A stretch of DNA of 64,000 nt. It comes from Promethearchaeota archaeon (lineage in GTDB: Archaea; Asgardarchaeota; Lokiarchaeia; Sigyniarchaeales; SOKP01). The position numbers and the translations under genes were made by a program. The stretch spans positions 352,001 to 416,000 of the forward strand of contig JBHLLT010000002.1 in assembly GCA_048938855.1 (NCBI GenBank). Reading direction: 5' to 3'. The stretch's first letter is position 1. Each line of letters opens with the position of its first letter. Positions 1,593 through 60,450 of the stretch are shown here, one piece after another. The notes under the pieces are model-generated. The model ran no database searches and was not told the origin of the DNA. It saw only the letters and a list, made by a program, of their open reading frames with translations.

Positions 1593-1616
1593 AAAATTAG
1601 CTAATAATAAACACTT

Positions 1617-44086: not shown

Positions 44087-44810
44087 CTCTTCCTAAATAT
44101 GCTTCAAGTACAATTTTATTATTAGCAACCTCTCGAGGAGGTCCATCTGCAATAAATCTACCTTGGTGCATCGCAATTACTCTTGGTACTAGTGTCATTA
44201 ATTCACGAAGTACATGTCCAGTCAAAAAAATAGTAACCCCATCATCATGTAACTTTTTAATTAAATCAGTTATAACTGAATTTTCCTCGTGTGTTAATCC
44301 ACTAAAAGGCTCATCTAAAAGAAGTAATTCAGGATTGGTTCCAAGAGCCTTTCCAATTTGCAATTTCCTTAGATCACCATGAGGTAAAACTATTGGAGGA
44401 ATTCTAGCTTTATCTATAAGGCCTACAGAAGCGAGAATTGAACTTGCCTGTGCTTCAGTACCAACTTTTTTAGAAAGTTTTTTTCCCCTATTAGATAAGC
44501 AAGGTACTGTTATATTATCAAGTAAACTTAGAAATTTGAAAGATCGAACTAGTTGGAAAGTTCGAGCTATTCCCAAGTTTACAATTTTGAAAGGTCTCAT
44601 TCCAGTAATGTCAACGCCATCAAATCTAATTCTACCTGAAGAAGGTTTTTCAAACCCACTAATTAAATTGAAAACTGTTGTTTTTCCCGCACCATTTGGA
44701 CCAATCAAACCTACGAATTCTCCTCGTTCGATTTCGAAGCTAAAATCATTGACGGCTGTTAATCCTCCAAATTTTTTTGTTAAATTTTTAACTTCTAAAA
44801 TAACTCCCAT
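44070..44810 (-). CDS. livG: HAAT-family ABC transporter ATPase
   Basis: FGGL.AV, GPNGAGKTT, GIARTFQ, LLDEP and AYLG motifs. Confidence 0.92.
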   Translation of the reverse strand: MGVILEVKNLTKKFGGLTAVNDFSFEIERGEFVGLIGPNGAGKTTVFNLISGFEKPSSGRIRFDGVDITGMRPFKIVNLGIARTFQLVRSFKFLSLLDNITVPCLSNRGKKLSKKVGTEAQASSILASVGLIDKARIPPIVLPHGDLRKLQIGKALGTNPELLLLDEPFSGLTHEENSVITDLIKKLHDDGVTIFLTGHVLRELMTLVPRVIAMHQGRFIADGPPREVANNKIVLEAYLGRGEGFA

Positions 44811-44846
44811 TCTTTAACTCATCTTATGTTAAATTTTTATAAAATC

Positions 44847-45869
44847 TTATCTACCTAGCAATACATCCCATAAATCTTTCAAACGCTCCAATATAGGCTT
44901 TAATATACCATGTTCAGCAAACCTGACAACGATAATTAATATTAATGCAAAAATTAAAAATACATAATTTTCAAAACCAATTTGTATAAGAGAATATTCA
45001 AGAAAAATGAAGAAAAAAGCCCCCAATGCTGATCCAGAAATTGATGTTAACCCCCCTAAAGATGCCATCAAAATAGCAAAAAATGAAATAGTAGAACCAA
45101 AGTTTCCAGTAGGATTTACCGCTCCAACATATAAAGCGTAAAAAGAACCTGCAATTCCAGCGAATAAAGCACTTAACATGAAAGCATAAACTTTATATCT
45201 AGTTGTATTGACTCCCGAAGCATCTGCTCCTGTCTCATCATCTCGAATAGCTTTTAAGATAGTTCCAAATTTAGATTTAGCGATTTGGAAAATTATAATA
45301 AAAATTGCTACCATTGAAATTAAAATAATAAAATATTCAATAATTGGATTTGGACCTATACTGGGAAGTCCAGAAATTCCCTCTGAACCAAAAAAAATAT
45401 ACGATAACGATCCCATCAAAAACAATTTTAGTAGAATTAAGCTGAATGCAAGTGTTCCTAAAGCTAAATAAGGACCTTTTAAACGCAAACAGGGAATTCC
45501 AATGATTAATCCAAAAAAGACAGCTCCTATGGGGCCAATAATAACTGCTGCCCAAATAGGAAAATACCGGTAACTAATTAGATAAGCACAAATATAACCT
45601 GCAATTCCAAAAAAAATAGAATGACCAAAACTAATTTGACCAGATATTCCAGTTAATAGATCCCAACTTGCAGCAAAAATTGAATAAATCATTGCTAAAG
45701 TAAATTGTCGTAAAAAAACATACAAAAAATTCTGATTTGGAGAAAAAAAGGGAAGCATAATAAGAGCAATTAAAGTAAAAAGAGTTAACCCCCCAGTAAA
45801 TGTTTTAGCCCAAGATTTTAAATAATGTGGTACTTCTGAAACTTTATTCTTAATATTTTTTTTAGTCAA
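44847..45869 (-). CDS. livM: HAAT-family ABC permease
   Basis: GQISFGH, LRLKGPYLAL, AIRDDE..A...GVN motifs. Confidence 0.9.
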   Translation of the reverse strand: MTKKNIKNKVSEVPHYLKSWAKTFTGGLTLFTLIALIMLPFFSPNQNFLYVFLRQFTLAMIYSIFAASWDLLTGISGQISFGHSIFFGIAGYICAYLISYRYFPIWAAVIIGPIGAVFFGLIIGIPCLRLKGPYLALGTLAFSLILLKLFLMGSLSYIFFGSEGISGLPSIGPNPIIEYFIILISMVAIFIIIFQIAKSKFGTILKAIRDDETGADASGVNTTRYKVYAFMLSALFAGIAGSFYALYVGAVNPTGNFGSTISFFAILMASLGGLTSISGSALGAFFFIFLEYSLIQIGFENYVFLIFALILIIVVRFAEHGILKPILERLKDLWDVLLGR

Positions 45870-45873
45870 TATA

Positions 45874-46761
45874 TTATCTCACCTCTTTTTTTCCAAATAA
45901 TCCTTGTGGTCTTATTAAAAGCACGATTACAATAACAATTATAGGTACTAAATGAGCCCAAGAAGGTCCATTGGGTATAAAAACTGATGTAAAACTAGTA
46001 ATATATCCAACAATAAAAGATCCAATAATACTTCCAATAAGACTTCCCATTCCACCAAGAATAACTACTGCAAATGAGCTCGTTAAATATTCCCATCCCA
46101 TATGCGGACCGTTTATAGAAGCTCCTGGTAAATAAAGGAATGCTCCAATTCCAGCAAGGAATGCAGAGATCATTACAGTATATAAAAGTATCCTATTTGC
46201 ATTTATGCCCATAAGTGTTGCAGCTTCACGATCTTGCGAAACAGCACGAATCGATTTACCTATTTTTGTCTTATTAATAAATAATGCGAAGGTTAATACT
46301 ATAATCAAAGAAATAATAATAAGTAATATGTATTGATTTATCATCGTATATCCTAAAACATCCACTGAACCTGGTATTAATCTTAATTGTGGAAGTGACC
46401 AAGATTCTGTACCTGAAATTATTAAAACTAATTGTTCTATGAAGAAAGCTAGAGCAAAAGTAATTAGAACAACTCCTACACTAGTATCTTGAAGTGGTTT
46501 AATTAATAATAAATAAGTTAACCCTCCAATGATTGTTATGACCACTAGTGCTATAACAACTATAAGCCAATTAAGCCCTGCAAGTATTGGCCACGATAAC
46601 ATCCATAAAAGAAGATATCCCGTTAACATAAAATAAGCACCATGAGCTAAATTCATAATGCCACCTACTCCATAAACCAAGGAATATCCTAAAGAAATTA
46701 ATGCAAGAACAGCGCCCTGTAAGGCACCATTAAATAACATATTAATTATATCGCTAATCAT
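45874..46761 (-). CDS. livH: HAAT-family ABC permease
   Basis: GYSLVYG...NLAHG, IRAVSQDREAATLMGI and RPQGLFG motifs. Confidence 0.92.
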   Translation of the reverse strand: MISDIINMLFNGALQGAVLALISLGYSLVYGVGGIMNLAHGAYFMLTGYLLLWMLSWPILAGLNWLIVVIALVVITIIGGLTYLLLIKPLQDTSVGVVLITFALAFFIEQLVLIISGTESWSLPQLRLIPGSVDVLGYTMINQYILLIIISLIIVLTFALFINKTKIGKSIRAVSQDREAATLMGINANRILLYTVMISAFLAGIGAFLYLPGASINGPHMGWEYLTSSFAVVILGGMGSLIGSIIGSFIVGYITSFTSVFIPNGPSWAHLVPIIVIVIVLLIRPQGLFGKKEVR

Positions 46762-46918
46762 AATAATTAACTCTGAAAATAATTACAACAGACTCTTATA
46801 TTTATTGTTCAATCTCATCTTTTATAAAACTAATCTTTATTCCATTTTTAGACAAATATATACAATTCATTGATTTTATATAATAAAAAAAAGAAATTAA
46901 TTAAATTTTTAAATTATT

Positions 46919-48349
46919 TTATGGGGTACTCCAAGCGGTATGAACCCATGGTGGTACTTGATATGTACCTAACGGAGTAATCCTATCATTTGGATATTCA
47001 TTACCGTAAGCAGGCACAACCACCTTAGTACTATTTGCTTGCCATTGAGTCCACAACGTATATGAAAATGGATATCCTTCAACTAGATCATGAGTGTCAG
47101 GCCACCATGCACCTCCTCCACTTACTCCTGGATGGGGGTTGGATCTTGTCCAAGTTTCCATTTCTGCTATAAGATCAAGAGCATCTAGTGAATCTTGTGC
47201 GACTGCTGCATCTATAATCCCCATTACAGCATCATATGCACCACATGCTATATAAAGTGGTTCATGTCCGAATTCTGCCTTAAAAGCATTCCAAAATGTG
47301 ATAGTAGTAGCACTTTTGTTAACTGCATATGCTGTTTGCATTAACGTCTCATATATGCAATCACCACCGCTTTGTGTCCAAAATGTATCTAATTGAGATT
47401 GTACATCTATTCCTATTATAACATAGTTTGGGTGTAAACTTGCATATTGTTGCATCATCATAATACCTCCTTGAGCAGAAATAACTGGGATCAAAATATC
47501 AACACCTTGATTACTCATTGTTTGTAAATGAGTATTCATATCTGCTGCACTTAACGTCACATCATATCTAATCACTGCTGCTGGAGGAACTGATATTTTA
47601 CCACCGGAGTAATAGGGTAATGCAACTGGCATGTTAGTTGTCATACCTTCACTCCAAGTCAAATCTTCAGCAAGAATACCAATAGTATCAATCTCTTCAC
47701 CGCCATAGTACCCTGCATATGTTCCATTTAAAACAGCTTGATAAGTAAGAAGAAATGCGACGATTTCACTCCCTAATGCGGATGTGTTTATTGGCATAAA
47801 TCTCCAGAAATATTTATATCGATCATAATAGTTTTTAACATTTAAACAGAATATATCTGTAGCTGCTCCTGTATCAATAAACAAAATCTTATTATCCATA
47901 AATACTTCTTGGTATGCTAGTAATGCTTCAGATCTAAATCCACCAAGTGCAAAATCAACATTTTTTTTATAAACTAACCTTTCTGCTGCAGCTATTCCCC
48001 TTGAGGTCACTAAATTTGGATTAGATTCATCAGTATCTTCTCTTGTTACCCCAATATAATAGGTGGTACTGTTAATAACAACTCCTCCTCCTTGATTTAT
48101 AGTTTTTGCTGCGAACCATGCTCCTTCATAATTAGCATCTCCTTGTATCTCCCCCGTATCACCAGCGCAACCAATTTTAATAATTTGATCGGCACTCAAT
48201 CCTGCTGGCGCACCGGGGCAATCAGCAGAGCTCCATTGATATTCACCAGCTCCTGGTGCTAAAAGAAAAAACCAAGCCCCAACGCCTATCCCAGTACCAA
48301 TAACAGCGATAAGTACAATAGCTAGAATTCTTTTTGCCATTTGTTCCAT
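46919..48349 (-). CDS. HAAT-family ABC substrate-binding protein, membrane-anchored
   Basis: N-terminal TM anchor; IKIG, INQGGG and GGFRSE motifs; first gene of the liv-type operon. Confidence 0.85.
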   Translation of the reverse strand: MEQMAKRILAIVLIAVIGTGIGVGAWFFLLAPGAGEYQWSSADCPGAPAGLSADQIIKIGCAGDTGEIQGDANYEGAWFAAKTINQGGGVVINSTTYYIGVTREDTDESNPNLVTSRGIAAAERLVYKKNVDFALGGFRSEALLAYQEVFMDNKILFIDTGAATDIFCLNVKNYYDRYKYFWRFMPINTSALGSEIVAFLLTYQAVLNGTYAGYYGGEEIDTIGILAEDLTWSEGMTTNMPVALPYYSGGKISVPPAAVIRYDVTLSAADMNTHLQTMSNQGVDILIPVISAQGGIMMMQQYASLHPNYVIIGIDVQSQLDTFWTQSGGDCIYETLMQTAYAVNKSATTITFWNAFKAEFGHEPLYIACGAYDAVMGIIDAAVAQDSLDALDLIAEMETWTRSNPHPGVSGGGAWWPDTHDLVEGYPFSYTLWTQWQANSTKVVVPAYGNEYPNDRITPLGTYQVPPWVHTAWSTP

Positions 48350-48545
48350 TTATTAGATCACTTCTTTAAAAAATTTTAATATATCATGTATGTTTATTTT
48401 TAGATTAACAAATATTAGTTCATTTTAACATATATTTAAAGTTTTCAACTTTTCATATTTGAAATCGGCTGATGTCAACAAAAATGTTTTAAAAAATAAA
48501 AAAAAAGATGTAAAATCTTGGACTTTTTGTAAAATCTTAGGCCTT

Positions 48546-51500
48546 TTATAGAACAATGTTCACAAAAATTTGAATTCCCACGATAATCCCTACAACTATA
48601 ACCAGTACTATGAATATTATAAGCGTGTAAAATCTCCACTTAATTGAGATATTTTCACTTCGTTCCTTAAATCTTATATAGGGCAATAATATCACCCCTA
48701 TAATCCAAATAGATATCCAAAAAGTAAATACATACCAAACAGGCGTTATAATCGCAAATAAAAGTACAATGATGCTTCCCCAACTAATTATTAACCGAAT
48801 AATACGACGTCTGAACCTTACATCAACATCATCAGTTTTTTTGGAGGGTAGAATAGCGTACATCATACCAAATATCGGAAAAATTAAAAGGATTGAATGT
48901 GTCCACCCTAAAAGATTTCCTACTGCTGGTGATATAGAGATACCGATTAAACTGGATATGAATACACTAAAAATTATCCAAAGAGTTTTATAATTTACTT
49001 TAATAAAATGGAAAATTTTAATAAACATATTCTTGATTGCTAACTGTATAGCTTTGAAGAATTTTGAGAGATACTCTACAATATTATTAATAAATCTTTT
49101 TAATTCCTCTAAAAGAAAGATAAATGGATAAAGTATAATACCAAAAATAATAAAAGTTATGCCTAAACCTAAGGATGAAGCACGATATACTATTATACAC
49201 AATAATGTGAATATCACTAACCAAAATATAAATGCCTTGGATACGAATTTTGAATGCTTTTTAAATGGTCTTACCTGGATTGTTAAAAATATAACAAAAA
49301 TAAGTAGACTGCTACTTATGTTTAAAGCTAAATCAAAATTTGGAACTCCTAAAAAACCTAAAAACAAATCAACTGACAGTAATGCCCCAATTACTAGAAA
49401 TGAGATAGATCTCAAAGATTTACGTAATTTCTCATTAACAATTTTATCTATAAGAGTTATTACAAACAATATAGATAACGATGCTAAGAATAAATTAAGG
49501 TTAGCAAAATGATTTGAACCAAGGAAATACAGGGGCCATGTAATAAAATTCAGATATGATATTATTATTAAACCTGACTTGATTTTCTTTTTATACGTAG
49601 CAACAACCTTCCAAAAACTCAATAATTTAAATAGATACGCGAACTCAAGAATTTGAATTATTACTATAATAGGAATTACTGTAAAAAAGAAACCACTAAA
49701 AAGTGTACTGTAAATCCAGATTAAGTATGTTGATGTAAAGATCATTATCATAATCCAAGAGAAGGATTTGACATAATCAGTTAGTTTTCCTAAGAATTTG
49801 AATAAAACACTATCTATTATCATTAAGATGTGAATTATAATACTCAAAATCAATAATATCAATTGTAAATTCAAGCCTACCAATATTAATGGTTGTACTA
49901 TAGAAAAACACAATGTAGCATAGAAGCCAATACCTAAAAGCCGGTGGATGTATTTTTGAGCCTTATCATAAGCTTCTTTTTTAACAGGGGAAGAGAGTTT
50001 TAACACTTTAAAGAAAGAATAATTTGTATAAAATTGCATTATCAAAAAGAAGAAGATTTCTAGACTAAGCAAGAAAAGAAATTGAGATACAAAGCTGTGT
50101 AAAAAGAGAAATAGATTTAACGATAATGCAAAATAACTAATTGTATGAACTAAACCCGCATAAATTATCTTTACTTTCTTTATAGAATAAATGTCTAATA
50201 GTGTTAAGACAAATAATATTGATAATGCCACCAATATACTTTCATAAACTCCTAAAAATGCACTTACTAAACCGTATACCATAATACTTATTTCAAAATA
50301 TAATATCAAAACCATAAATGAATGTATCTTTGATGAAAAGTCCGGATATTTTTGTTTTCCCCATATAATATCATAATATTTTATAGATACAAATGAAAGG
50401 CATATTTCTATAAAAATAATTAAATTAATAGAAATGAAGTTCAAAGAACCAAACAGTATGAATATATATGCCAAATTTACTGCAATTAATCCTTGAAATA
50501 CGATAAAAAGAATAAATTCGACTCTGTACTTTATATTTTTTTCGATTCTAACGAATAATAGACTGAAGAAATATAAAAAAAGAGAGGAATTCTGAAATAA
50601 TAAAGATAAGTATCCAAATCCCCTTAATTGGTCAAAAATAAGTACAAGTCCATTAGATATTAAAGATGCTATAAAAAATGAACTCCAGATGAAGGAATTA
50701 TAAATAAGTAATATCCTGAGCTTTGAAATTGTCTCTTTTGAAATCTTTAAGCGAGACATGAAATGAAGTGTAAGTAGATTTAGAACTGAAAATGTTAAAA
50801 CTAAGAGAAAAGGGTTCAAATGAAATAAATATATAAATAAAGAAAATGTATTACAGAAAATAAACCAACTCCATAGTGTAAATCTGTTTCGGGTTGAATC
50901 TATTAAAAATTTAAAAATACTCTTATCCATGAAAGCGACTTCAATAAATAGCATAATAGTTGACGATAATAGAACCAAATAGATTATAATTACTAAATTA
51001 AGATTGATAAAAACAAGATATAGGAAGATATTCATTCCGACGGCTATAGTAATAAAAAGATATAAAACACAGCTTAAGATGCTAAAATTACGTAATAAAC
51101 CTTTTAATTTTATATCCAGCTCTGACTTTATTATATATTTCATACAAATTAGGAATAAAAATGGCCATATGAATAGAAAATCAAAAATTTGATAAATAAT
51201 TATGATATCCGTAAATATTATTGACATAAATAGATTTGGTAAAATAATCGTGAGAAATAATGATATACATACTGAGTTTGTTAAGAAACATGTAAAATTA
51301 AGCCATTTTAATTGAGTTTTATCTTTGTAAATCTTAAATATACTATTTTTTATTTCTTCCGTATCATCTTCTACAGACCGCTTGAAAAGATTAATTAAAA
51401 TCTGAAAGGTAATAAGGTAAAGCATCGGCCATGATAAAAATGCAAAAATCCAATTAGAATAAATTAAATCAAGTGTCAATAACCATTCAATAATAGGAGA

Positions 51501-54500
51501 AATTATAGGTATTGGAATGACAAACCAAAGAATATATCGATATTCAACAAATATTTTGTAGAGAAAAATAATGAACACAGCAGAAAAGACAGTTATTAAT
51601 ATTCCAATTGGAGCATGAAATAAAATTGAGCTGAGAGAAGTTATTGATAAGGATGACCCAAGTGCTACAGCTAAATAGGGATATATTTTATTAAGACGTA
51701 ATCTCATCTTATAACGGTTAAATATAAAATAGGAGCATCCAAATACAGTAAGTCCTAATGATAACGCTAAAATTATAAATCCTAGAAAGAAATAAAAAGT
51801 GTTGAATGTCAGCCATGAGAAATTTATAATCAATATCCAAGAAAGGCATAAATCTATTATTCTTTTTGGCAACTTCAAGTATTTAGAAGAAAAGAGCGTA
51901 ACCCCAAATACCAATAGACTTAAGTTTACTGCAAAAATTATATGATGAATTACAGCATAGAGAATAAAATAGATTGTTAAGAAAATTCCTAATAAGGATA
52001 TGCTATATGCTGTTATCAAGACCAAGCCAATAGATCTAATATTTGGGAAGAAGGAGTATACTATTAAAAATATTCCAATAACTAAAATATCAAGAGAAAT
52101 CGTAATTTCTAAGGGGAGACCAATCGAAGTTAAATAAAACAATAAAAATGAAACATTCATAAATGTCATTGGAAATAACCAAAAGATTGAAACTATTTTC
52201 CAAAATTTAAATAACATTAATAAAGGCATCAAAAGAGTGGCTGAAAACATAATAAAAAACAAATTTCTTAGAACAAGATCCGCTACAAATAAATTCTGAC
52301 TAAACCAATAAAGTAAAAATAAACTTTCACCCCAAATTGTAAAAACAATTATAGAAAAGTATTTCTTAATTTTACTATACACCACTGGTATGAAAAATAA
52401 AGAGCAAATTATGAGAGATAAAAAGAAAGAACCCCCAAATTCAAGAGTTCCAATACTCCATAGTTCTGTGGTAAAGATATCTATTCCTGTTAAACTTTGG
52501 TAGATTATATACCAATTTATTATAGGTAGAATGTTCCACATGTACCACCCTGATTTCCAAATCGCCCAAGATACTTTCCATTGGTAAATTCCAATAGATA
52601 GATAAAATAGAAAGACGCCAAAATTAATAGAAACTATTAAGGGAACTATAGACAATAGCGGCATTGATAGAGCTGCAATTATTAGAAAATATATAAATGT
52701 TGGAAAAGAAATAACAATTGAGATTAATACAATATAAAATGATTTCTTTCTAAATCTTGCAGGAGCGTTATTATATAAAAGAACAAACGCAAATCCTGTC
52801 ATACTCAAAGTTAATGTAAACGTTAAAATTGGGTTGAATTCACTAAATATAGGGCCACTAAATAGCACAAAATACGACATAAAGCTGATGAAATCAAATA
52901 CAAATAGAATTACACATGGATTTATAAACCATTTATAGCGTTCATCCTCTTTACGATAAAATGAGATTCCCAAAAATAGCAAAAACAAGAAAAGAGATAT
53001 TGTTATGTTATAAAGAAGTAAAATATTTGTAAATAAGCTTAGATAGATAAAAGATAGGGTTGAGATGAGAAAATATAATGAAAATTTTTCAAAAGTATTA
53101 TTTCTTTTTATATTTAATAATATCGAGAAAAATAAAACTCCACTTAGGGATAGAGGATAATTTATAGCAAATAAACCTATTAGATCAATATTATAAGCAG
53201 TTATAACCTCATAAAAGGTTAAAACAACAAGAACATCAACAATAATAACATAACTCAATAAGAAATAAGTTATAAACCTATAAATGGGAAAAATATTTCT
53301 TTTAGTAAGAATAAATATGGCTACTATTACAATAAGAATTGGTGAGAAAAATAAACCAAAATAAAGAAGGCTTGTTGACAATATGATTGATAAAATATAA
53401 AAACCAAACAATCTTAAATTAGCTTCTTCTTCGACTATTTTATTAAATTTTGAAAAGAAATAAAATATAATCAAGATCGGAGTAATTATAAGAGTGGATA
53501 TATGAAGACTAGGGTTAAAAGAGAAAATAGGGATTTGAGGTGTCAAATTAAAAAGAATTTCAAGGTATATGCTCAATAATGATATCATAAATACTATTAC
53601 TGTTACTTTTTTCAATGCTAGTTGATTTTTAACTGAGATATATTTCAAATTCTTTAAAACATAAAGACTAAGAGGAGTAAAGAAGGCAAACGTTAAACAA
53701 AATAATGTAATTACGTTCAAAATAAAGAATTGATATATAAAATAATTGAGTATCGAAGTTAACAAAATGCAAATTACACTCTTAACCATTAGCCATGTAC
53801 ATAACTGAATAATTGTCTTAAGTTGTGTAAATCTCATTTCACTTAGACTATTCAAGAAAATAAGTGATAAAAGAATAATGATGAAAAAAAATCCAATCCA
53901 AGTTGATCCACTAATTAAAACTGGTAACGTGTTCAGAAAAGTAAAAAGATTAAGAGAGATGATTAAAAATGTAAAAATAGAGGATATTGAGATAATTAAA
54001 CCATAAATTGGTATATCTATAAATTTACTTAAATTTGGTAATTTAGTAATTACTTTTGAGGCGAAACTTATCGTATATATACTTAGAGTAAAAAAGACAA
54101 AAAAACAGCAGCTCAATATTAAATAAGTAAATGGAGTCAATTCAATCGTAGTGATAAAGATTGAAGCAATATAATAAGATACAAATAATGTGAAAGAAAA
54201 CCAAGTGATTAATCCCACTGTTTTGAAACTCTTGATGTAAATACTTTTTAATTTAATTTTTGTACTAATAAATTCAGAAACCCTCAAAAAACAAAATAGT
54301 AAAAATAATGTTATTGTAATTATTAGGATATAATTTGGTAATAATCCAATTCTTACTAGCTCTAATCCAATTATTGTAGGTATAGAGATAATTAAGGCAG
54401 ATAGAGCAAGAAAGTTATAGATTGTTAACTTTTTAATTAAATCTAAGTTGAAATATTCTCTTTTATAAGAATAATAGAATAGTAAAAACCATGAAATAAG

Positions 54501-57107
54501 TAAAGTGATTAACGGTAAGACATACGCATATAAAGTTCCACTTAATAGGAACCATGGGTAGTAGAATACTGTTGTAAAGCTTATACAAAATCCAACAATC
54601 ACACGTGATTTCAGAAAGAAATTAACAGTTTTTTCTTTACATTCTAATTTTTTTAATGAATAATAGTAAACACTTAAAATTATAAAAAGAATATATAAAG
54701 TAAAATTAATTACTGTCATTATTAAGAGAATTAAATCAAAATATAGGCCTAAATTATATATATCTAACCCTATAAAAGTGGGAATCACTGTTAATGTTGC
54801 AGATAATATTACACTGTTTACTTTAATTGCGCTAATTGCAAAGGTAGGATATATCTGTTTCTTTCTTAGATAGATAACAGGCAAAAAGAAGACTAAAGTA
54901 GAGACCAAAAGTGGGAGATTAAAAACAAATATTGTATTCAATGTTAGCCTTAAAAATAAGTAAAATACTATTAATACGCTATATAGCAAAACAAAAACAT
55001 TTATTTTAATGTAAAAGTCTTCAGAAAAAATCCATCTTTTTGAGATAAGGTTAATTAATACGCAAACTGAAGCTAATGATGAAAATATTGAATATAGTGC
55101 ATTATCAAACAAAGGGAGACTATGAAATACTGAAAAAAATAATGTATAGAATAAATATAAAAGTTCGATGGTTATCAAATATGAATTTATTTTAACATAT
55201 TTCTTAAACCTGGATTCTTTCACGCGATCTAAATTCACGCCAAATTTTATAATAAAATAATAGAAAACTGAGGTAATAAGGAAATCAAATGCTAATAGAA
55301 TAAAAATTGCAGAAAGCAAAGAGATAATAAGTAGAGATATGAATAAATCACTTAATAGTATCCAAAGAGCAAAATAAGTATATTTTAAGAAATATTCTTT
55401 AGGAAAAATATGTAGAACATTATTTAAATAGAGAAAAGCAATAAAAACGATTGGAAAGCAAATTAACGAGATACATAATACTTGTAAAAACGGAATGAAC
55501 TCGATTAAGTAGTAGAATCTAAAATTAACAAATACAAATAGAATTAGTTCGATTAATAAACTATTCACTAATACAATCCTTCTAAATAATTTAGGACTCT
55601 TTACATTGAAATATCTAATACCAAGTATATAGTTGGAAATTAGTAAGGTTATTAGAATAAATATTGAGTGTAAGAGAATGTTTGAAACTAAAATCACAAC
55701 GGGAGGATCTGAGGGAAATGTAGTAGATTCAATGATCATTGGAAAGAATATATATAATACTAAGCAAAAACTTGCGACAGCAAGTAAATTTTGGAAAATG
55801 ATAACTTCATCTTTAGCAAAATATTTTAGTTTAACGAAAATTTGTAAAACAAAATATAGAGCGATTGTAAGTATTAGGAAATTTATTAATATCGTCTGTA
55901 TGGATGATGGAATTATTCCAAATGAGATAGCGACTAAAATTGCTATCGAATTTAATAAGCCTGCAAATTTATTATACTTTTTTGAACATAGACCTGCCTT
56001 CTGTTCATAATGAAGCAGAAAATAGATGAATGGTAGAACTATTAAAATTATTAGAGGAACTCTTGTTGAAAAGGAATATAAAGAAATTAATATAATCAAA
56101 ATGCTAGAGAGAACTGAATTGTATTTTTGATATTTTACATATCCTAATTGAGTTTTTTCATTGGAAGTTTCTTCCCTTTCAGAATTATTATATATCGATA
56201 ACTTTGAAGTGAAATGAAAACCAATATAAAACCTGGATTTAAAATAAAACAAAACAAAAATTATAACCAAGAAAAGATTATTTATTACTTCTAAACTCAA
56301 AAATGGAATTCCCGAAATAACTCGTGCAGAAATTGTAATAAGAGGTATTTCGATTAAAAGAATAAAAATTAAGCCTATTTGAGTGTCTACTAATCGCCGT
56401 TTAAAGATTGTCAGGGATTTAAGTATAACTTTTTTTTCTTTTATAGATTCGCGAATAGATTTTACCTGAGTCTTTGTACTTGTAAAGGTAATAATATAGA
56501 AAATTATATTTGTTAAAAGAGCAAAAAGCCAAGCAAAATTAGTAGGTGCTAGAAAGGATAAAAAGAAAATATGGATCACATAATTTAGGAAAACAAGGAA
56601 ATTGTAAGGTTGTTTAATCATCAATTCGGTACTCTTAGCATGTTTAAACTCGCTTTCTTTTAAATCAAAATAATCTATAGGTTGGAAATGATAATAATAA
56701 TAAACGATATTATAGAGAAACGCATAACTAATAAGTGGAAGGTAAATAAATGAGTCATATGGTGAAATAAGGATAAATATGGGAGTTGTGATAAATGATA
56801 CAACGGAAATCAGATATAATACATGAATTCGTGCCCCTAGATTATTTGTTTTATTTAGAAAAAAGGGATTATCTCTATATTTGTCATAAGCTTTATAAAA
56901 AAATAGCAACGAAAACATAAACCCGACAATTGAGAAAGATAATGAAATGAATAATCCAACACTGGCAAAATTAAAAATAGCAAAAATTGCGATTGCTACT
57001 ATTAATGGAGCAATAATTAAAAAGAAGGCAAACCACCATGATTTATGGAGCACTTCAGTTGCCTTTCTAATTCTCTCTTGCGAGTTATCACTACTTTTTG
57101 ATTTCAT
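48546..57107 (-). CDS. Giant polytopic membrane protein (2853 aa), function unknown
   Basis: Uninterrupted 8.5-kb ORF of hydrophobic segments separated by short, often Lys/Arg-rich loops. Confidence 0.85.
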   Translation of the reverse strand: MKSKSSDNSQERIRKATEVLHKSWWFAFFLIIAPLIVAIAIFAIFNFASVGLFISLSFSIVGFMFSLLFFYKAYDKYRDNPFFLNKTNNLGARIHVLYLISVVSFITTPIFILISPYDSFIYLPLISYAFLYNIVYYYYHFQPIDYFDLKESEFKHAKSTELMIKQPYNFLVFLNYVIHIFFLSFLAPTNFAWLFALLTNIIFYIITFTSTKTQVKSIRESIKEKKVILKSLTIFKRRLVDTQIGLIFILLIEIPLITISARVISGIPFLSLEVINNLFLVIIFVLFYFKSRFYIGFHFTSKLSIYNNSEREETSNEKTQLGYVKYQKYNSVLSSILIILISLYSFSTRVPLIILIVLPFIYFLLHYEQKAGLCSKKYNKFAGLLNSIAILVAISFGIIPSSIQTILINFLILTIALYFVLQIFVKLKYFAKDEVIIFQNLLAVASFCLVLYIFFPMIIESTTFPSDPPVVILVSNILLHSIFILITLLISNYILGIRYFNVKSPKLFRRIVLVNSLLIELILFVFVNFRFYYLIEFIPFLQVLCISLICFPIVFIAFLYLNNVLHIFPKEYFLKYTYFALWILLSDLFISLLIISLLSAIFILLAFDFLITSVFYYFIIKFGVNLDRVKESRFKKYVKINSYLITIELLYLFYTLFFSVFHSLPLFDNALYSIFSSLASVCVLINLISKRWIFSEDFYIKINVFVLLYSVLIVFYLFLRLTLNTIFVFNLPLLVSTLVFFLPVIYLRKKQIYPTFAISAIKVNSVILSATLTVIPTFIGLDIYNLGLYFDLILLIMTVINFTLYILFIILSVYYYSLKKLECKEKTVNFFLKSRVIVGFCISFTTVFYYPWFLLSGTLYAYVLPLITLLISWFLLFYYSYKREYFNLDLIKKLTIYNFLALSALIISIPTIIGLELVRIGLLPNYILIITITLFLLFCFLRVSEFISTKIKLKSIYIKSFKTVGLITWFSFTLFVSYYIASIFITTIELTPFTYLILSCCFFVFFTLSIYTISFASKVITKLPNLSKFIDIPIYGLIISISSIFTFLIISLNLFTFLNTLPVLISGSTWIGFFFIIILLSLIFLNSLSEMRFTQLKTIIQLCTWLMVKSVICILLTSILNYFIYQFFILNVITLFCLTFAFFTPLSLYVLKNLKYISVKNQLALKKVTVIVFMISLLSIYLEILFNLTPQIPIFSFNPSLHISTLIITPILIIFYFFSKFNKIVEEEANLRLFGFYILSIILSTSLLYFGLFFSPILIVIVAIFILTKRNIFPIYRFITYFLLSYVIIVDVLVVLTFYEVITAYNIDLIGLFAINYPLSLSGVLFFSILLNIKRNNTFEKFSLYFLISTLSFIYLSLFTNILLLYNITISLFLFLLFLGISFYRKEDERYKWFINPCVILFVFDFISFMSYFVLFSGPIFSEFNPILTFTLTLSMTGFAFVLLYNNAPARFRKKSFYIVLISIVISFPTFIYFLIIAALSMPLLSIVPLIVSINFGVFLFYLSIGIYQWKVSWAIWKSGWYMWNILPIINWYIIYQSLTGIDIFTTELWSIGTLEFGGSFFLSLIICSLFFIPVVYSKIKKYFSIIVFTIWGESLFLLYWFSQNLFVADLVLRNLFFIMFSATLLMPLLMLFKFWKIVSIFWLFPMTFMNVSFLLFYLTSIGLPLEITISLDILVIGIFLIVYSFFPNIRSIGLVLITAYSISLLGIFLTIYFILYAVIHHIIFAVNLSLLVFGVTLFSSKYLKLPKRIIDLCLSWILIINFSWLTFNTFYFFLGFIILALSLGLTVFGCSYFIFNRYKMRLRLNKIYPYLAVALGSSLSITSLSSILFHAPIGILITVFSAVFIIFLYKIFVEYRYILWFVIPIPIISPIIEWLLTLDLIYSNWIFAFLSWPMLYLITFQILINLFKRSVEDDTEEIKNSIFKIYKDKTQLKWLNFTCFLTNSVCISLFLTIILPNLFMSIIFTDIIIIYQIFDFLFIWPFLFLICMKYIIKSELDIKLKGLLRNFSILSCVLYLFITIAVGMNIFLYLVFINLNLVIIIYLVLLSSTIMLFIEVAFMDKSIFKFLIDSTRNRFTLWSWFIFCNTFSLFIYLFHLNPFLLVLTFSVLNLLTLHFMSRLKISKETISKLRILLIYNSFIWSSFFIASLISNGLVLIFDQLRGFGYLSLLFQNSSLFLYFFSLLFVRIEKNIKYRVEFILFIVFQGLIAVNLAYIFILFGSLNFISINLIIFIEICLSFVSIKYYDIIWGKQKYPDFSSKIHSFMVLILYFEISIMVYGLVSAFLGVYESILVALSILFVLTLLDIYSIKKVKIIYAGLVHTISYFALSLNLFLFLHSFVSQFLFLLSLEIFFFLIMQFYTNYSFFKVLKLSSPVKKEAYDKAQKYIHRLLGIGFYATLCFSIVQPLILVGLNLQLILLILSIIIHILMIIDSVLFKFLGKLTDYVKSFSWIMIMIFTSTYLIWIYSTLFSGFFFTVIPIIVIIQILEFAYLFKLLSFWKVVATYKKKIKSGLIIISYLNFITWPLYFLGSNHFANLNLFLASLSILFVITLIDKIVNEKLRKSLRSISFLVIGALLSVDLFLGFLGVPNFDLALNISSSLLIFVIFLTIQVRPFKKHSKFVSKAFIFWLVIFTLLCIIVYRASSLGLGITFIIFGIILYPFIFLLEELKRFINNIVEYLSKFFKAIQLAIKNMFIKIFHFIKVNYKTLWIIFSVFISSLIGISISPAVGNLLGWTHSILLIFPIFGMMYAILPSKKTDDVDVRFRRRIIRLIISWGSIIVLLFAIITPVWYVFTFWISIWIIGVILLPYIRFKERSENISIKWRFYTLIIFIVLVIVVGIIVGIQIFVNIVL

Positions 57108-57302
57108 CGCCCACCACGATTTTTATTATACGTTGAGATTAATAATAATTTTGGTTTATAAATTTTTCAGAATTATCTTTACAAATATATTTTACTAATG
57201 TGTTAAGACCACTTAAAAGGTTTTGTCACTTATGCTAGTAGAACCTATAAAAATAGTAGTAAATCGTTTATTAAGGTGGTAGTAAATTTAAAATTAGTTT
57301 AA

Positions 57303-58625
57303 TTATCTAAAATTTGGTAAATAATTTTTTTGAACTTCCATCATATCATTAAATATCTTTTCTGCCATTTCAAAATTACCTACATTAGGATCAATAGCCA
57401 AACTTGCAATTGCTAATTCTTTCGATTCTTTTAGAACTGCTTCAACACATAAATCTTGAACTGATGCTTCGATACGAAGTAAAGCAGCAATATTTTTAGG
57501 TAATGATCCTACTCTGATGCCACTAATCCCATTTCTATTGACAATCGCTGAGCATTCTAAAATTAAATCATTTGGCAAATTATCAACTATATTATCATTA
57601 GGGATGTTTACTGCCGTCTCATACGAATTCGTATCATTAATTAAAGCTTCAATAATTGGAATAGCGCGTTCTCCTGAGGGGACACTATATAAGATTCCTT
57701 TTTTCGGAAATCTTCCTTCTTTTAGTTTTTTATAATATATAAGATACCTTTTATATCGCAGATCTCCTTCTTTTTCAATAAAATTTAGCCAATCTAACAT
57801 ATCTTGAGTCTTAGTGAATTCTTCTCCAAATTGGAGATATTCTCCTAAATGATTATCACCTACATAGGGAAAAAATCCAAATCTTTTATAAACTTCAAAT
57901 GTAAGCTTGGAAAACTCAAATTTATGTTCTGTAGTACTGAAATAATTCATAGCTTTATTATTAAATTCAGGCATCAAATCTTTACCAGTTATTAAGTCTT
58001 CAAGACTAATCAAAAATGCAAAATGATTTAATCCATTTGTTTTCATCTTTAATTCATCTATAGATTTATTAAATAATATAGGTAAATGCCGTACCATAAA
58101 TCCAATTTGATGGCATAATCCAACAAATTTTAGAATTTCTGTACTTCTTTTAATTGCTAAGCAAACTCGAGACACTGGATTAGAAAAATTAATAAAAAAT
58201 GCATTAGGACAAATTTTTTCAACATCTTTAACAATCTCTATAATGGGGGGAATTATTCTCCAGGAATGAAATGTACCCCCTGGTCCCCCACACTCACCCA
58301 GAATCTGGGTGGATCCATATTTTCTTGGGACCTCATAATCTTGACGCCATAATTTCATTCTATCTCCAATTTCTATTGAATTAATTATGAAATTGGCATC
58401 CTTTAGTGCTTTAACTCTGTTAGTTGTCCTTTCAAGAAACATTTTATTTTTATGAAGTTCATTTTCAGCGACTAAAAGATCATAAATCATTTCCAATTTA
58501 TCTTTATTAATATCATGAAGAACGACTGTAGACCCTTCCAAAACATCACTTAAATATATATCATTGAACATATGTCTTCCAAATGATGCCGAACCCGCTC
58601 CAATCAACACTATCTTTTTATTCAT
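57303..58625 (-). CDS. Glycoside hydrolase family 4 (alpha-galactosidase/alpha-glucosidase type)
   Basis: KIVLIGAGS, GECGGPGG, NFSNP, GLCH and GLNH motifs. Confidence 0.92.
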   Translation of the reverse strand: MNKKIVLIGAGSASFGRHMFNDIYLSDVLEGSTVVLHDINKDKLEMIYDLLVAENELHKNKMFLERTTNRVKALKDANFIINSIEIGDRMKLWRQDYEVPRKYGSTQILGECGGPGGTFHSWRIIPPIIEIVKDVEKICPNAFFINFSNPVSRVCLAIKRSTEILKFVGLCHQIGFMVRHLPILFNKSIDELKMKTNGLNHFAFLISLEDLITGKDLMPEFNNKAMNYFSTTEHKFEFSKLTFEVYKRFGFFPYVGDNHLGEYLQFGEEFTKTQDMLDWLNFIEKEGDLRYKRYLIYYKKLKEGRFPKKGILYSVPSGERAIPIIEALINDTNSYETAVNIPNDNIVDNLPNDLILECSAIVNRNGISGIRVGSLPKNIAALLRIEASVQDLCVEAVLKESKELAIASLAIDPNVGNFEMAEKIFNDMMEVQKNYLPNFR

Positions 58626-59040
58626 ATAATATTCCCCATTATATTAGGCAAATATTTTATGTTTAGTTAAAAGTATAATCACCTTAATATGTTCTTCTGG
58701 ATGTTCCATTATACTTACTTGTCAAATTTCTTAATAGTTTGACAAATGGGAAGGAAATGGGAAAGTTTATAAGGTGTCTCTATCTAATTTTATATAATGA
58801 GTTTTTCACAAAATAATAATACTACAGATAATAATTGCGGCTTACATGCATACGTAAAGCCAATCTTTATTCGTAGTATTATTAAGAGAGAATAAATCAA
58901 ACCTCTTAACCTTTTTCCTTTAATTTTTACTGATTTGTTCTCTTTTATAACTACATAACAATAAAGATTATTTGAAATAGGTTAATATTAGATTTGTTCC
59001 TCCTAAAGAAGGACTCAATTAAAAAAGGAGGTGAAATAGA

Positions 59041-59220
59041 CTGAAAGAAAAATCAGATAATATGGATCTGATATTAGAATATTATCAAGATTGGGATTCT
59101 TATAAGAGCCCAGTCATGATGTCATTCGATGCCCCAAATGAGTTTTCCGAAAGTCTTGAAGCTGAAGACGAACGAAGGATGAAATCTTTAAGGCAAAAAA
59201 TGAGTAGAAGACTGGGTTGA
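59041..59220 (+). CDS. Small acidic/basic protein (59 aa from CTG, or 52 aa from ATG 59062)
   Basis: Perfect RBS GGAGGTGA at 59027-59034; translation (M)KEKSDNMDLILEYYQDWDSYKSPVMMSFDAPNEFSESLEAEDERRMKSLRQKMSRRLG*. Confidence 0.6.
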   Translation: MKEKSDNMDLILEYYQDWDSYKSPVMMSFDAPNEFSESLEAEDERRMKSLRQKMSRRLG

Positions 59221-59268
59221 TAAAATTAAAACTTAATTATAAATTTTAAACAATTTTTTTTATTATTT

Positions 59269-60450
59269 TTATTTTAATAGTGGCTTTATACGATTTATTG
59301 CTTCAATTAACCTGTTTTCTGGTTGTGTTAAAGCAAATCTTACATATCCCTCTCCATATTGACCAAACCCAATTCCTGGCGTTGTTATTACCCCAATATC
59401 AATTAATTTCTTTACGAACTCCATACAACTAATATTTTTATAACTTTCAGGAATTTGAGTCCAAACATAAAATGTAGCTTGAGGTGTGTCAGTTATCCAA
59501 CCATTATCATTTAATCCTTTCACTAGGACATCTCTCCGCCGTTGATAAGTCTCCACTATCTTCTCCACTATTTCCGGTTTTTTTTCTGATTTATATTCAT
59601 TTAACCCTATTGCAACTGCTTTTTGAATAAATGTAGGACAACCAGAATCGATTTGAGATTTAACTTTTCTTAAACCTTTAACGATATCTTTATTACCCGC
59701 AACCCAACCACACCTGAATCCTGTCATATTAAACATTTTAGATGCACTATTAATTTCGATATGGTTAGGATCAATCTCTAATATTGATGGTGCAATGTAT
59801 TCTCCAAATGTAAACTCCGAATATGGATTGTCATGAACTATAATAAAATTGTAGTCTTCAGCATAATCCACAACTTTTTTAAGATAGACCTTAGGTATTG
59901 TTGCTCCTGTTGGATTATTAGGGTAATTTAAATACATTAATTTGGCTTTTCTAAGAACTTCTGTATCAATGGCATCTAAATCAGGTAAAAAATGATTCTC
60001 TTTTAATAAAGGCATTAAATAAGGTTCTGCATCACATAGTTTTGTGGCTCCATTCTCATAAACCGGATATCCTGGATTTGGGCATAGCACAATATCTCCT
60101 GGATTTATAAAGGCTCTAGCAATATTAGCAACACCTTCCTTACCTCCAATGACATTTGATACTTCATCTTTAGGTCTTAAATCCACATTAAACCTAATTT
60201 TATACCATTTTGCAACAGCTTCTCTAAAACTTTCTTCTCCCATACTAGCAGGATATTTCTGATTCTCGAGAATTTTAACTTGTTTTATTATCTCATTAAT
60301 GATCAATTCAGGAGTAGGTAAATCAGGGTCTCCTATTCCTAAAGGGATTAGATCAATTCCCTTCCTTTTCTTTTCTGCTATTATCTGTTCAATCTCAACA
60401 AAGACGTATATTGGTAGTCTTTTTATTCTCTCAGAATATTCTATTCTAAT
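59269..60450 (-). CDS. dapL: Class I/II PLP aminotransferase, LL-diaminopimelate aminotransferase-like; probable ATT start
   Basis: Upstream extension gives SERIKRLPIYVF...DLIPLGIGDPDLPTP; also NYPNNPTG, SASKMFNMTGFRCG and GEGYVRFAL. Confidence 0.8.
   Translation of the reverse strand: MRIEYSERIKRLPIYVFVEIEQIIAEKKRKGIDLIPLGIGDPDLPTPELIINEIIKQVKILENQKYPASMGEESFREAVAKWYKIRFNVDLRPKDEVSNVIGGKEGVANIARAFINPGDIVLCPNPGYPVYENGATKLCDAEPYLMPLLKENHFLPDLDAIDTEVLRKAKLMYLNYPNNPTGATIPKVYLKKVVDYAEDYNFIIVHDNPYSEFTFGEYIAPSILEIDPNHIEINSASKMFNMTGFRCGWVAGNKDIVKGLRKVKSQIDSGCPTFIQKAVAIGLNEYKSEKKPEIVEKIVETYQRRRDVLVKGLNDNGWITDTPQATFYVWTQIPESYKNISCMEFVKKLIDIGVITTPGIGFGQYGEGYVRFALTQPENRLIEAINRIKPLLK

Follow-up and report, generated by a model that had tools for sequence, protein, structure and literature searches.

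A single uninterrupted reading frame on the minus strand of contig JBHLLT010000002.1, from a Promethearchaeota archaeon, raises the question of what a cell gains from a 2853-residue protein that lies almost wholly within its membrane. The frame belongs to a window of 64,000 nucleotides, which is the whole stretch of DNA analyzed and the one to which all coordinates refer. ORF calling assigned the 2,853 codons exactly to the interval listed for the giant gene in Table 1, and no ORF longer than 125 aa was found in the other frames of that interval. A preliminary description made from the sequence had already seen this ORF as a protein built almost entirely of transmembrane (TM) helices, and the analysis presented here follows that description through topology, internal repeats, distribution, and likely role.

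One polypeptide of about 89 membrane helices

The protein is dominated by Leu, Ile, and Phe (16.4, 15.8, and 12.3 % of residues), and dynamic-programming hydropathy segmentation of the whole chain yielded 88 TM segments spanning 62 % of its residues. One additional helix was missed by the predictor in a Trp-rich stretch, which brings the total to about 89. The preliminary estimate of roughly 80 hydrophobic segments was thus right about the many-helix build and slightly low in the figure. Its statement that no soluble domain exists also holds up, as no two helices are more than 52 aa apart, and even this widest gap (1508-1559) holds a kinked helix. AlphaFold models covering 1,595 residues together agree closely with the hydropathy count. 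The model of aa 1230-1910 (pLDDT 83.2, pTM 0.55) contains 24 TM-length helices against 23 predicted plus the missed one, and the model of aa 1940-2853 (pLDDT 81) contains 29 against 29. In an alternate-loop count, Lys and Arg residues number 196 in the 45 cytoplasmic loops versus 7 in the outside loops, and the chain is therefore a series of about 44 hairpins (helices of 19-34 hydrophobic, membrane-spanning residues) with tight turns on the outside and basic loops on the inside. The outer turns are uncharged and only 2-16 aa long, and the cytoplasmic connectors are Lys/Arg-rich and 4-52 aa long. The K/R-rich loops switch parity precisely at the Trp-rich signature (aa 1508-1540). The locus accordingly encodes one polypeptide of about 89 TM helices, or about 44 hairpins, with almost nothing outside the bilayer. 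To our knowledge, this number of spans is far above that of any characterized polytopic protein and more than twice the 38 of Piezo. That the gene represents a genuine giant polytopic protein family is virtually certain.

The gene is present in a single copy in the source genome, which is 97 % complete. A 195-nt spacer separates it from a GH4 gene and carries AT-rich, TATA-like boxes farther upstream of a Shine-Dalgarno-like site. If the candidate oligo-T terminator downstream of the stop codon works as such, the giant gene would form its own transcription unit. The order aminotransferase-GH4-giant gene is kept within the family f1, and the liv-type ABC operon downstream is common to close relatives only. 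No neighbor is shared with f3 genomes, and no functionally informative gene neighborhood conserved across the order was found.

Table 1. Features of the giant gene and its flanks in the 64,000-nucleotide window.
Feature	Residues (aa)	Coordinates	Strand	Description
Giant polytopic membrane protein gene (P0001)	2853 in all	48546..57107	-	About 89 TM helices; N-terminus inside, C-terminus at outer face
Shine-Dalgarno-like GTGGTGG		57111..57117	-	3 nt upstream of ATG; read from sequence
Oligo-T run T9-A-T6, candidate archaeal terminator		48491..48506	-	About 40 nt past TAA stop; read from sequence
Basic N-terminal cytoplasmic segment and TM1, conserved	1-45	56973..57107	-	Family consensus EKI.KATE.L.K.WWF
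Array A, three tandem repeats of about 130 aa (4-TM, two-hairpin)	604-738, 678-843, 807-973	54189..55298	-	Self-BLAST, hhalign
Single-copy conserved core, 24 TM helices	1230-1910	51378..53420	-	Most conserved part of the family
Trp-rich signature	1508-1540	52488..52586	-	Continues via PI.N into kinked helix (TM missed by predictor)
Only sizeable outer-face element	1541-1559	52431..52487	-	G-[IV]-D motif, then small predicted beta-hairpin
Array B, about five 4-TM units of about 125 aa	2000-2625	49233..51110	-	hhalign
C-terminal module, conserved	2531-2853	48549..49517	-	YPFIFLLEE, amphipathic helix, and IKWRFY before last TM
Long basic amphipathic cytoplasmic helix	about 2667-2708	48984..49109	-	Continuous with preceding TM helix

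Hairpin arrays around a conserved core

Autocorrelation of the sequence peaks at 60-63, 127-134, 195, 253, and 317 aa; at its most basic level, the structure repeats with each 2-TM hairpin, or about every 63 aa. The preliminary description had noted internal similarity, which beats chance in both self-BLAST and hhalign. Segments 697-839 and 829-965 align at 35.8 bits in self-BLAST versus no more than 23.9 bits in three shuffles, and hhalign on array A gave the two clear copies a probability of 98 % and the first one 77 %, with a reversed-profile null whose maximum score was 31.7. In array B, hhalign paired 2013-2132 with 2263-2385 at 96.8 % and 2227-2360 with 2481-2608 at a score of 37, which exceeds the same null maximum. 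The 4-TM repeat units (about 125-134 aa) that had been proposed for the protein are detected at aa 604-973 and 2000-2625 only, and no repeat rose above the reversed-profile null in profile-profile windows outside these two regions. At the level of sequence repeats, the proposal therefore stands for about a third of the protein. The individual motifs first picked out by eye are all in place: two IPT.IGL motifs 134 aa apart (starting at aa 768 and 902), ISFPTFIYFLI (aa 1466-1476), a Trp-rich string (aa 1508-1524), and the long amphipathic helix near the C-terminus.

Comparison of orthologues shows how the chain changes length. Indels come in discrete sizes of one hairpin (63-70 aa), one 4-TM unit (134-135 aa), or one 8-TM block (245-256 aa). 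Also seen are insertions of 177-179 aa, which we read as about three hairpins, and larger deletions at the N-terminus that reach up to about 330 aa. Array A gains or loses 134-135 or 245-256 aa, and array B carries 250-aa and 179-aa insertions in orthologues and extra tandem copies of its unit in an f4 homologue. The conserved core and the C-terminal module are thus flanked by arrays of 2- and 4-helix units whose number varies between species. In one clade, the first 300 or so residues are encoded as a separate overlapping ORF, so an interruption at a cytoplasmic loop is tolerated.

The core stands out in the family with a column identity of 0.59-0.69 versus about 0.48 elsewhere. Homologues from cultured organisms and closed genomes each have one core copy, matched at E values of 1e-50 to 1e-67 by the first f1 profile, built from 30 sequences; later profile searches included these homologues themselves and are hence not independent. 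In an order-wide core alignment of 58 sequences, the invariant residues are only Trp, Phe, Pro, and one Asn, among them W1517, W1524, P1528, and N1531. Trp 1510, 1514, 1517, 1521, and 1524 line one helix face. The beta-hairpin predicted in the outer-face element corresponds to DSSP strands at core-model residues 321-328, where the pLDDT is only 57-58. At the other conserved sites, the C-terminal module matches homologues of cultured species at E 1e-12 to 1e-22, its amphipathic helix is part of a 59-residue helix in the model (model residues 707-765), and the N-terminal segment has related wording in distant homologues of cultured species. Within f1, 20 conserved polar or charged residues fall inside predicted TM helices, including E520, E648, E916, K1109, E2234, E2272, D2305, H2321, H2426, D2432, D2580, and several Asn. 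The f1 motifs that bear these intramembrane acidic and His residues had no match in f3 and f4 homologues in a pattern search.

Relatives, distribution, and likeness to known proteins

Across 400 sampled Asgard genomes, the family is present in about 116 of the 153 that belong to one order, and the core protein, core profile, and C-terminal profile matched nothing in the other 247 or so. Some NCBI records labeled Thor-, Hod-, Hermod-, or Odinarchaeota do carry the giant gene, and all GTDB-placed genomes with a match are in the same order as the source genome, so the family is specific to Lokiarchaeia-type Asgard archaea. Searches of some near-complete genomes from the same taxonomic family did not recover the gene (e.g., genus g11 is mostly negative), which makes it dispensable. 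The preliminary description had proposed that the protein may shape, scaffold, or sense tension in the membrane, roles that remain inferential, and had suggested a connection to the protrusive morphology of these archaea. That connection is weakened by the absence of the family from every sampled Asgard group beyond this one order and even from some near-complete genomes of the order itself. Homologues fall into 114 clusters of 1570-3754 aa, several of them colinear over the full length at 33-60 % identity, and colinear orthologues down to about 30 % identity occur in more than 100 genomes. Together with a dN/dS of 0.14-0.17 versus four orthologues, this conservation shows a real gene under purifying selection. 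The giant gene itself matches the core profile at E 3.9e-263 and also matches the C-terminal profile; it has the single-copy core signature and the C-terminal module in a protein of TM hairpins longer than the 2300 aa taken to define the family. By alignment, it shares the signature W..G...W...PI.N, followed by G[IV]D and then GS...LP, with f3 and f4 homologues. An exhaustive HMMER search of the core profile against 1.84 billion representative proteins returned 60 matches, nearly all giant members or fragments of them, and one 196-aa row at E 1.8e-6. Small stand-alone relatives of the repeat units amounted to four matches, all of them fragments on short contigs.

The closest comparison is to homologues in cultured or closed Lokiarchaeia, namely, DSAG12_00898 of P. 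syntrophicum MK-D1 (QEE15075.1, 3940 aa), two paralogues in Ca. L. ossiferum (NEF87_002906, 3146 aa, and NEF87_003094, 4905 aa), and MCF2139232.1 of Ca. Harpocratesius repetitus (4296 aa). These proteins have the same single-copy core and C-terminal module as the giant protein, resemble it in N-terminal wording, and likewise consist of TM hairpins throughout, with a similar GRAVY (about 0.9-1.0). They differ in being 300-2050 aa longer through more hairpin units, in having a core identity of only 19-24 %, and in their gene neighborhoods. The full Trp stripe, H.LMI.D, and IKWRFY are specific to f1 and not literally conserved in them. All are annotated as "hypothetical protein", a literature search turned up no paper that mentions the locus tags or describes the family, and the two L. 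ossiferum tags were not found in the supplements examined of a motility preprint on that organism.

The protein fits no known family and, for the modeled regions aa 1230-1910 and 1940-2853, no known fold, which agrees with its preliminary description as an uncharacterized, almost wholly intramembrane protein of repeated helical units. Pfam and NCBIfam assigned no family to the whole protein, nine fragments searched against Pfam at E<=10 gave just two chance-level rows (E 0.09-0.18), and a 30-sequence profile had no match among PDB sequences at E<=1. Transporter and channel superfamilies (MFS, RND, ABC-TMD, APC, and Mrp/complex-I antiporter-like) had no Pfam, NCBIfam, or PDB-sequence match, and DUF2157 and other described polytopic DUFs had none in Pfam-A or NCBIfam with the whole protein, so that neither fused transporter domains nor a DUF2339/DUF2157-like protein was detected. 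Neither model had a significant Foldseek match in the PDB (best E 0.14-0.23); heading the lists, without significance, were soluble alpha-alpha solenoids such as TPR and HAT proteins, a result in keeping with stacked hairpins. VIA-align, run wide on both models, reached a best Z of 8.3-8.8 over 120-150 residues, which lies within the stated background of the tool for helical models, and no family stood out in the fold searches. The best ESM Atlas score was 0.89, to unnamed clusters.

Two likenesses deserve comment. Piezo1/2, to which the protein had been likened from the start with no homology claimed, is of the same size class (about 2500-2800 aa) and is likewise built from repeated 4-TM units. 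Piezo also has a cap, a beam, an anchor, and a pore module. None of these was recognized in the giant protein, which has no cap-like soluble domain (its longest loop is 52 aa) and about 89 rather than 38 TM helices on a 2-TM base unit. The comparison goes no further in the searches, since Piezo Pfam domains (PF12166, PF15917, and related) had no match with the whole protein at E<=1 or with nine fragments at E<=10, and no Piezo chain was among the matches listed by Foldseek (ranks to 50, less a few duplicate-entry rows) or VIA-align (50 matches listed) for the two models. Soluble alpha-alpha solenoids such as Ski3, Ctr9, APC subunits, and designed helical toroids share stacked antiparallel helix pairs and length change by whole repeats. 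However, the TPR/HAT matches are weak (E >= 0.14, TM-score <= 0.19; one designed toroid reached TMq 0.27 at E 1.1), and these proteins are soluble with helices of 12-20 residues, so the likeness is an analogy only.

A proposed scaffold and its alternatives

We tentatively prefer, at somewhat less than even odds, a structural membrane scaffold in the form of a length-adjustable ribbon or solenoid of hairpins. Hairpin topology and the nature of the Foldseek neighbors suggest that the chain may run as stacked helical hairpins within the membrane, where it would cover roughly 100 nm2 of bilayer as a rigid patch or belt of adjustable length. Through its many basic loops on the inner side, the protein would hold on to head groups of anionic lipids or to partners in the cytoplasm, and the core, with its Trp-lined interfacial helix and sole outer loop bearing G-I/V-D, could be a site of self-association or partner binding. 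The protein would be neither a catalytic enzyme nor a classical transporter. Several observations argue for a structural over a catalytic role: the order-wide invariant core residues are limited to Trp, Phe, Pro, and one Asn; length varies in whole hairpins, 4-TM, and 8-TM units, with a different copy number in f4; the split ORF shows that the chain can be interrupted; no enzyme or transporter family was detected by sequence and no such fold in the two models, whose top non-significant Foldseek neighbors are alpha-alpha solenoids; and the order lacks an informative conserved gene neighborhood. Counting against a scaffold are the f1-conserved intramembrane polar and charged residues, which might bind ions or lipids instead of contributing to packing, and the dispensability of the gene, which does not fit a core structural role. 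A bolder version, possible but on balance doubtful, is a membrane-embedded alpha-solenoid in which a rigid belt, arc, or raft of roughly 44 stacked TM hairpins, tens of nanometers long, would mechanically organize, stiffen, or partition the wall-less Lokiarchaeales membrane, for example along or at the base of protrusions, with a length tuned during evolution by the gain or loss of hairpins and with no bacterial or eukaryotic counterpart. If true, it would represent a new membrane architecture and protein-based membrane shaping.

The best of the alternatives, although unlikely, is that the helix field handles lipids or defends against membrane damage by sequestering or buffering lyso-lipids or detergent-like molecules or by shielding the membrane from lipases. 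This role is modeled on bacterial Arc3A/DUF2339 (PF10101), a precedent that itself weighs against the scaffold as a protein of similar character with a lipid-handling or defense role. Arc3A, e.g., PA5114 of Pseudomonas aeruginosa, lacks catalytic residues and has 35 predicted TM segments, a number that differs among species; it confers protection from a phospholipase toxin, and its helix field is proposed to sequester or buffer harmful lipids or to shield the membrane from lipases (PMC8926400). It is predicted to reach the outer membrane, has a partner, Arc3B, and its substrates are ester lysophospholipids (PMC8926400). Very large size, densely packed TM helices in variable arrays, and the lack of a catalytic signature, soluble domain, and characterized homologues are common to both proteins. 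The patchy presence of the giant gene within the order would suit an accessory or defense role, and one L. ossiferum paralogue adjoins a PlsC-type acyltransferase gene, a single case. However, the two proteins have no detectable sequence relationship. PF10101 matched neither the protein nor its fragments at E<=10, nor its own genome at E<=0.01, and none of the 400 Asgard genomes rose above the 33.6-bit family cutoff, the weak matches lying at other loci; the ESM Atlas similarity to a DUF2339-bearing cluster, 0.80, is at chance level. Classical ester phospholipases do not accept the ether lipids of archaea as substrates, and ester lysophospholipids are absent from archaeal membranes. No Arc3B-like partner gene and no conserved lipid-enzyme neighbor was seen at the loci examined. 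Arc3A was the only functionally studied protein of similar general character that we found. Were the giant protein to work as Arc3A does, a poorly understood "TM-helix field" defense principle would extend to archaea.

It is rather improbable that the protein anchors another assembly in the membrane or offers it a platform there, be it an SPFH/flotillin microdomain, the cytoskeleton, or a surface structure, with its own basic loops and amphipathic helix as docking sites. The Lys/Arg-rich cytoplasmic loops and the conserved amphipathic helix of about 40 aa would suit docking, and in MK-D1 the gene immediately upstream of the giant gene, on the same strand, encodes an SPFH/flotillin protein. This adjacency was seen at one of six listed f3 loci, where Pfam was run on the neighbors of four giant genes in three genomes. 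An anchor also overlaps the preferred scaffold and does not exclude it. Slightly less probable again is a giant ion- or solute-conducting machine (a channel, antiporter-like protein, or mechanosensor) that would use the conserved intramembrane acidic and His residues. Such residues (E, D, H, and K) are conserved within f1, and VIA-align returned 3- to 4-helix matches to Mrp/complex-I small subunits, ORAI, and YnaI at Z 7.5-8.5. However, these values are background for helical models and cover 80-130 residues only, the f1 motifs were not found by pattern in f3/f4 homologues, and the order-wide core contains no invariant charged residue. Piezo, transporter, and channel families gave no match by sequence or, for the two models searched, by fold, and whole-hairpin indels and a split gene would be unusual for a fixed conduction pathway. 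Finally, a chance or decaying ORF could be imagined from the GC content, down to 25 % across the gene, and the T-rich coding strand, but an open frame of 2853 codons is not expected by chance in AT-rich DNA, and the idea is refuted by the colinear orthologues, the dN/dS, transcription in MK-D1, and the confident AlphaFold models.

The scaffold and its alternatives raise the questions of how about 44 consecutive hairpins are inserted by Sec/YidC-type machineries, what the cell gains from so large an area of pure intramembrane protein, and whether, in the archaea nearest to the ancestor of eukaryotes, hairpin solenoids can act as mechanical or lipid-organizing elements. As the family is under purifying selection in an order that includes the cultured MK-D1 and L. 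ossiferum, these questions are open to experiment now, and a deposited L. ossiferum proteome (PXD074767) could reveal the protein. The MK-D1 transcriptome already shows expression, with DSAG12_00898 transcribed at RPKM 152 and the four neighbors shown at 203-317 (Imachi 2020, Suppl. Table 3, PMC7015854).

Hairpin topology of the giant protein

The giant protein, the 2853-residue product of window 48546-57107 on the minus strand, was divided by a self-written, simple dynamic-programming hydropathy segmenter into 88 transmembrane (TM) segments comprising 62 % of its residues. Because every loop is at most 52 residues long, there is no soluble domain, and the preliminary description of a protein made almost entirely of TM helices was borne out. 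Two AlphaFold2 models were built on orthologue alignments. The model of residues 1230-1910 (pLDDT 83.2, pTM 0.55) has 24 helices of TM length versus 23 predicted plus one missed by the segmenter, and the model of residues 1940-2853 (pLDDT 81.1, pTM 0.50) has 29 versus 29 predicted. The missed helix is kinked, 27 residues long, and located at about 1514-1540. Lys and Arg are confined to alternate loops for helices 1-46, and this parity is reversed precisely at the Trp-rich stretch 1508-1559. Once the missed helix is added, 45 inside loops (843 residues) contain 196 Lys and Arg, and 44 outside loops (234 residues, median 4) contain 7. The protein therefore has about 89 TM helices with its N terminus inside; these pair into about 44 hairpins, whose outer turns are tight and uncharged and whose inner connectors are basic. 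The early estimate of about 80 helices was right in that TM helices are very many but slightly low, judging by the segmenter, the models, and the charge pattern. Autocorrelation of hydropathy and of Lys/Arg density peaks at 60-63 residues, with harmonics at 127-134, 195, 253, and 317. The sole notable outer element is a predicted β-hairpin of ~20 residues that follows a conserved G-[IV]-D motif.

Length-variable modular arrays surround a fixed core

The IPT.IGL motif pair, 134 residues apart, that had prompted the proposal of 4-TM repeat units was found again. Self-BLAST of residues 697-839 against 829-965 scored 35.8 bits (shuffles ≤23.9), and a profile-profile comparison of this pair returned 98 % probability. 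A scan of 134-residue profile windows along the full profile, judged against reversed profiles as the null (highest score 31.7), located two tandem-repeat regions, arrays A and B (table), and the proposal stands for these; elsewhere in the protein the scan detected no sequence repeats. The core is present exactly once in each distant homologue. In 58 core sequences from across the order, nothing is invariant except Trp, Phe, and Pro residues and one Asn, and the alignment gives the signature W..G...W...PI.N followed by G[IV]D and next by GS...LP. The Trp-rich segment described earlier is real, and within f1, the family of the window protein, Trp 1510, 1514, 1517, 1521, and 1524 line a single helix face.

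Length differences among orthologues are mostly quantized, at 63-70 residues (one hairpin), 134-135 residues (4 TM), or 245-256 residues (8 TM); insertions of 177-179 residues also occur, and deletions at the N terminus reach about 330 residues. One homologue in family f4 carries additional tandem copies of the array-B unit. In one clade, the N-terminal ~300 residues (about 10 TM) form a separate ORF in a different frame that overlaps the ORF for the remaining ~2530 residues by 8 nt, with the break at a long cytoplasmic loop. This arrangement was seen in five MAGs, so a sequencing error is not the cause; the gene is genuinely split there or carries a frameshift site.

Features of the giant protein, its gene, and related loci (L-numbers, loci of homologues in other genomes; f1 and f3, families of one Asgard order)
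Feature	Location or record	Strand or length	Remarks
Array A	aa 604-738, 678-843, 807-973		profile-window scan
Array B	about five units, aa 2000-2625		profile-window scan; 2013-2132 vs 2263-2385, 96.8 %
Single-copy core	aa ~1230-1910		between arrays A and B; highest conservation in protein
C-terminal module	aa 2531-2853		conserved
N-terminal segment	first ~45 aa		conserved
Split giant gene	L049:9945-10883 and L049:10876-18477	+	same pattern in L035, L039, L064, L051
Aminotransferase and GH4 genes	window 57303-60306		order aminotransferase-GH4-giant kept across f1
liv-type ABC importer operon (binding protein, two permeases, two ATPases)	window 43373-48349		downstream; common to close relatives only
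f3 homologue, P. syntrophicum MK-D1	DSAG12_00898	3940 aa	exact look-up
f3 homologue, Ca. L. ossiferum	NEF87_002906	3146 aa	exact look-up
f3 homologue, Ca. L. ossiferum	NEF87_003094	4905 aa	exact look-up
f3 homologue, Ca. Harpocratesius repetitus	MCF2139232.1	4296 aa	exact look-up

Known folds and possible roles

The giant protein matched no described family by sequence and, in the models of residues 1230-1910 and 1940-2853, no known fold, and we found no paper describing it; its public records all read "hypothetical protein". Pfam and NCBIfam returned nothing for the whole protein or for nine fragments (E ≤ 10), nor did the ESM Atlas or a search of PDB sequences with the family profile. With the two models, Foldseek found no match in the PDB (best E 0.14-0.23), the top rows being non-matching soluble TPR/HAT-type solenoids with TM-scores ≤0.19; the best Z in a wide VIA-align search, 8.3-8.8 across 120-150 residues, was at background level for helical models. 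Piezo chains, to which the preliminary description had drawn a comparison without claiming homology, were absent from the fold-search matches listed for these models.

Our preferred reading, held tentatively, is that the protein may be a structural ribbon of hairpins in the membrane. Such a ribbon would form a rigid patch or belt within the membrane, with basic inner loops that could bind partners or anionic lipids and a core that might mediate association. Supporting this reading, the core has no order-wide invariant charged residues, indels are whole repeats, the chain tolerates a split, and a transporter or enzyme fold was not detected in the models of residues 1230-1910 and 1940-2853. Counting against it, 20 polar or charged intramembrane residues are conserved within f1, and some genomes dispense with the gene. 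A role in lipid buffering or defense like that of Arc3A is rather unlikely. Arc3A (DUF2339), which has 35 TM helices in variable number, lacks catalytic residues, and defends against a phospholipase toxin (PMC8926400), is the nearest functional analogue; membership of DUF2339 itself was rejected, as its profile matches neither the protein nor the source genome, nor any of 400 sampled Asgard genomes above the family cut-off. Improbable too is a platform on which partners such as flotillin would dock, a reading that overlaps with the hairpin ribbon, and a conductor of ions or solutes is the less probable of these last two.

The gene, its neighbors, and its distribution

The coding region is a single unbroken ORF of 2853 codons, and no ORF longer than 125 residues occurs in its other frames. 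By sequence inspection, a Shine-Dalgarno-like GTGGTGG lies 3 nt 5′ of the ATG and a T9-A-T6 run lies ~40 nt 3′ of the TAA stop. With ~195 nt of spacer on both sides, the gene appears to be transcribed as a unit of its own. That the ORF is non-functional can be dismissed, since its length is not expected by chance in AT-rich DNA and dN/dS of 0.14-0.17 against four orthologues agrees in showing purifying selection. The gene has 25 % GC versus ~30 % in the surrounding DNA, and its coding strand is T-rich (AT skew is strongly positive on the plus strand at window 50000-56000) because the protein is rich in Leu, Ile, and Phe (16.4, 15.8, and 12.3 %); this composition accounts for the GC dip, which does not point to foreign DNA.

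In f1, the giant gene follows the aminotransferase and GH4 glycosidase genes, all on one strand, even at ~33 % orthologue identity; no neighbors are common with f3 genomes. In MK-D1, an SPFH/Band-7 flotillin-like gene (L081:2207-3439 (+)) is directly upstream of the orthologue on the same strand, and in L. ossiferum a PlsC-type acyltransferase gene (L079:2101-3021 (-)) adjoins the 3146-residue paralogue. Each is a single case, and neither adjacency is conserved at other loci with annotated neighbors.

Homologues fall into 114 clusters (1570-3754 residues), all unnamed or "hypothetical" and none with a Pfam domain. Of 1.84 billion representative proteins searched exhaustively with the core profile (HMMER), 60 matched, nearly all family members or fragments. 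Across the 400 sampled Asgard genomes, queries with the core protein, core profile, and C-terminal profile matched 100-105 of 134 in f1, 1 of 1 in f2, 4-12 of 14 in f3, and 2 of 4 in f4; about 247 genomes from the remaining 29 families gave no match. Assembly fragmentation accounts for some absences within the order, as C-terminal pieces sit at contig ends; several genomes at least 96 % complete, notably in genus g11, also lack the gene. It is single-copy in the source genome (97 % complete) and in most others, and L. ossiferum (L079, L080) has two paralogues. The family is transcribed in culture, since Supplementary Table 3 of Imachi et al. 2020 lists DSAG12_00898 at RPKM 152 and four of its neighbors at 203-317 (PMC7015854). 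Some public records with the gene are labeled Thor-, Odin-, Hod-, or Hermodarchaeota (L057 = DATKTW010000160.1, L028, L033, L041, L023, L005, and others) and one "Nanopelagicaceae bacterium"; all GTDB-placed genomes with a match belong to one order, and the deviating labels probably reflect submitter taxonomy or mis-binning.
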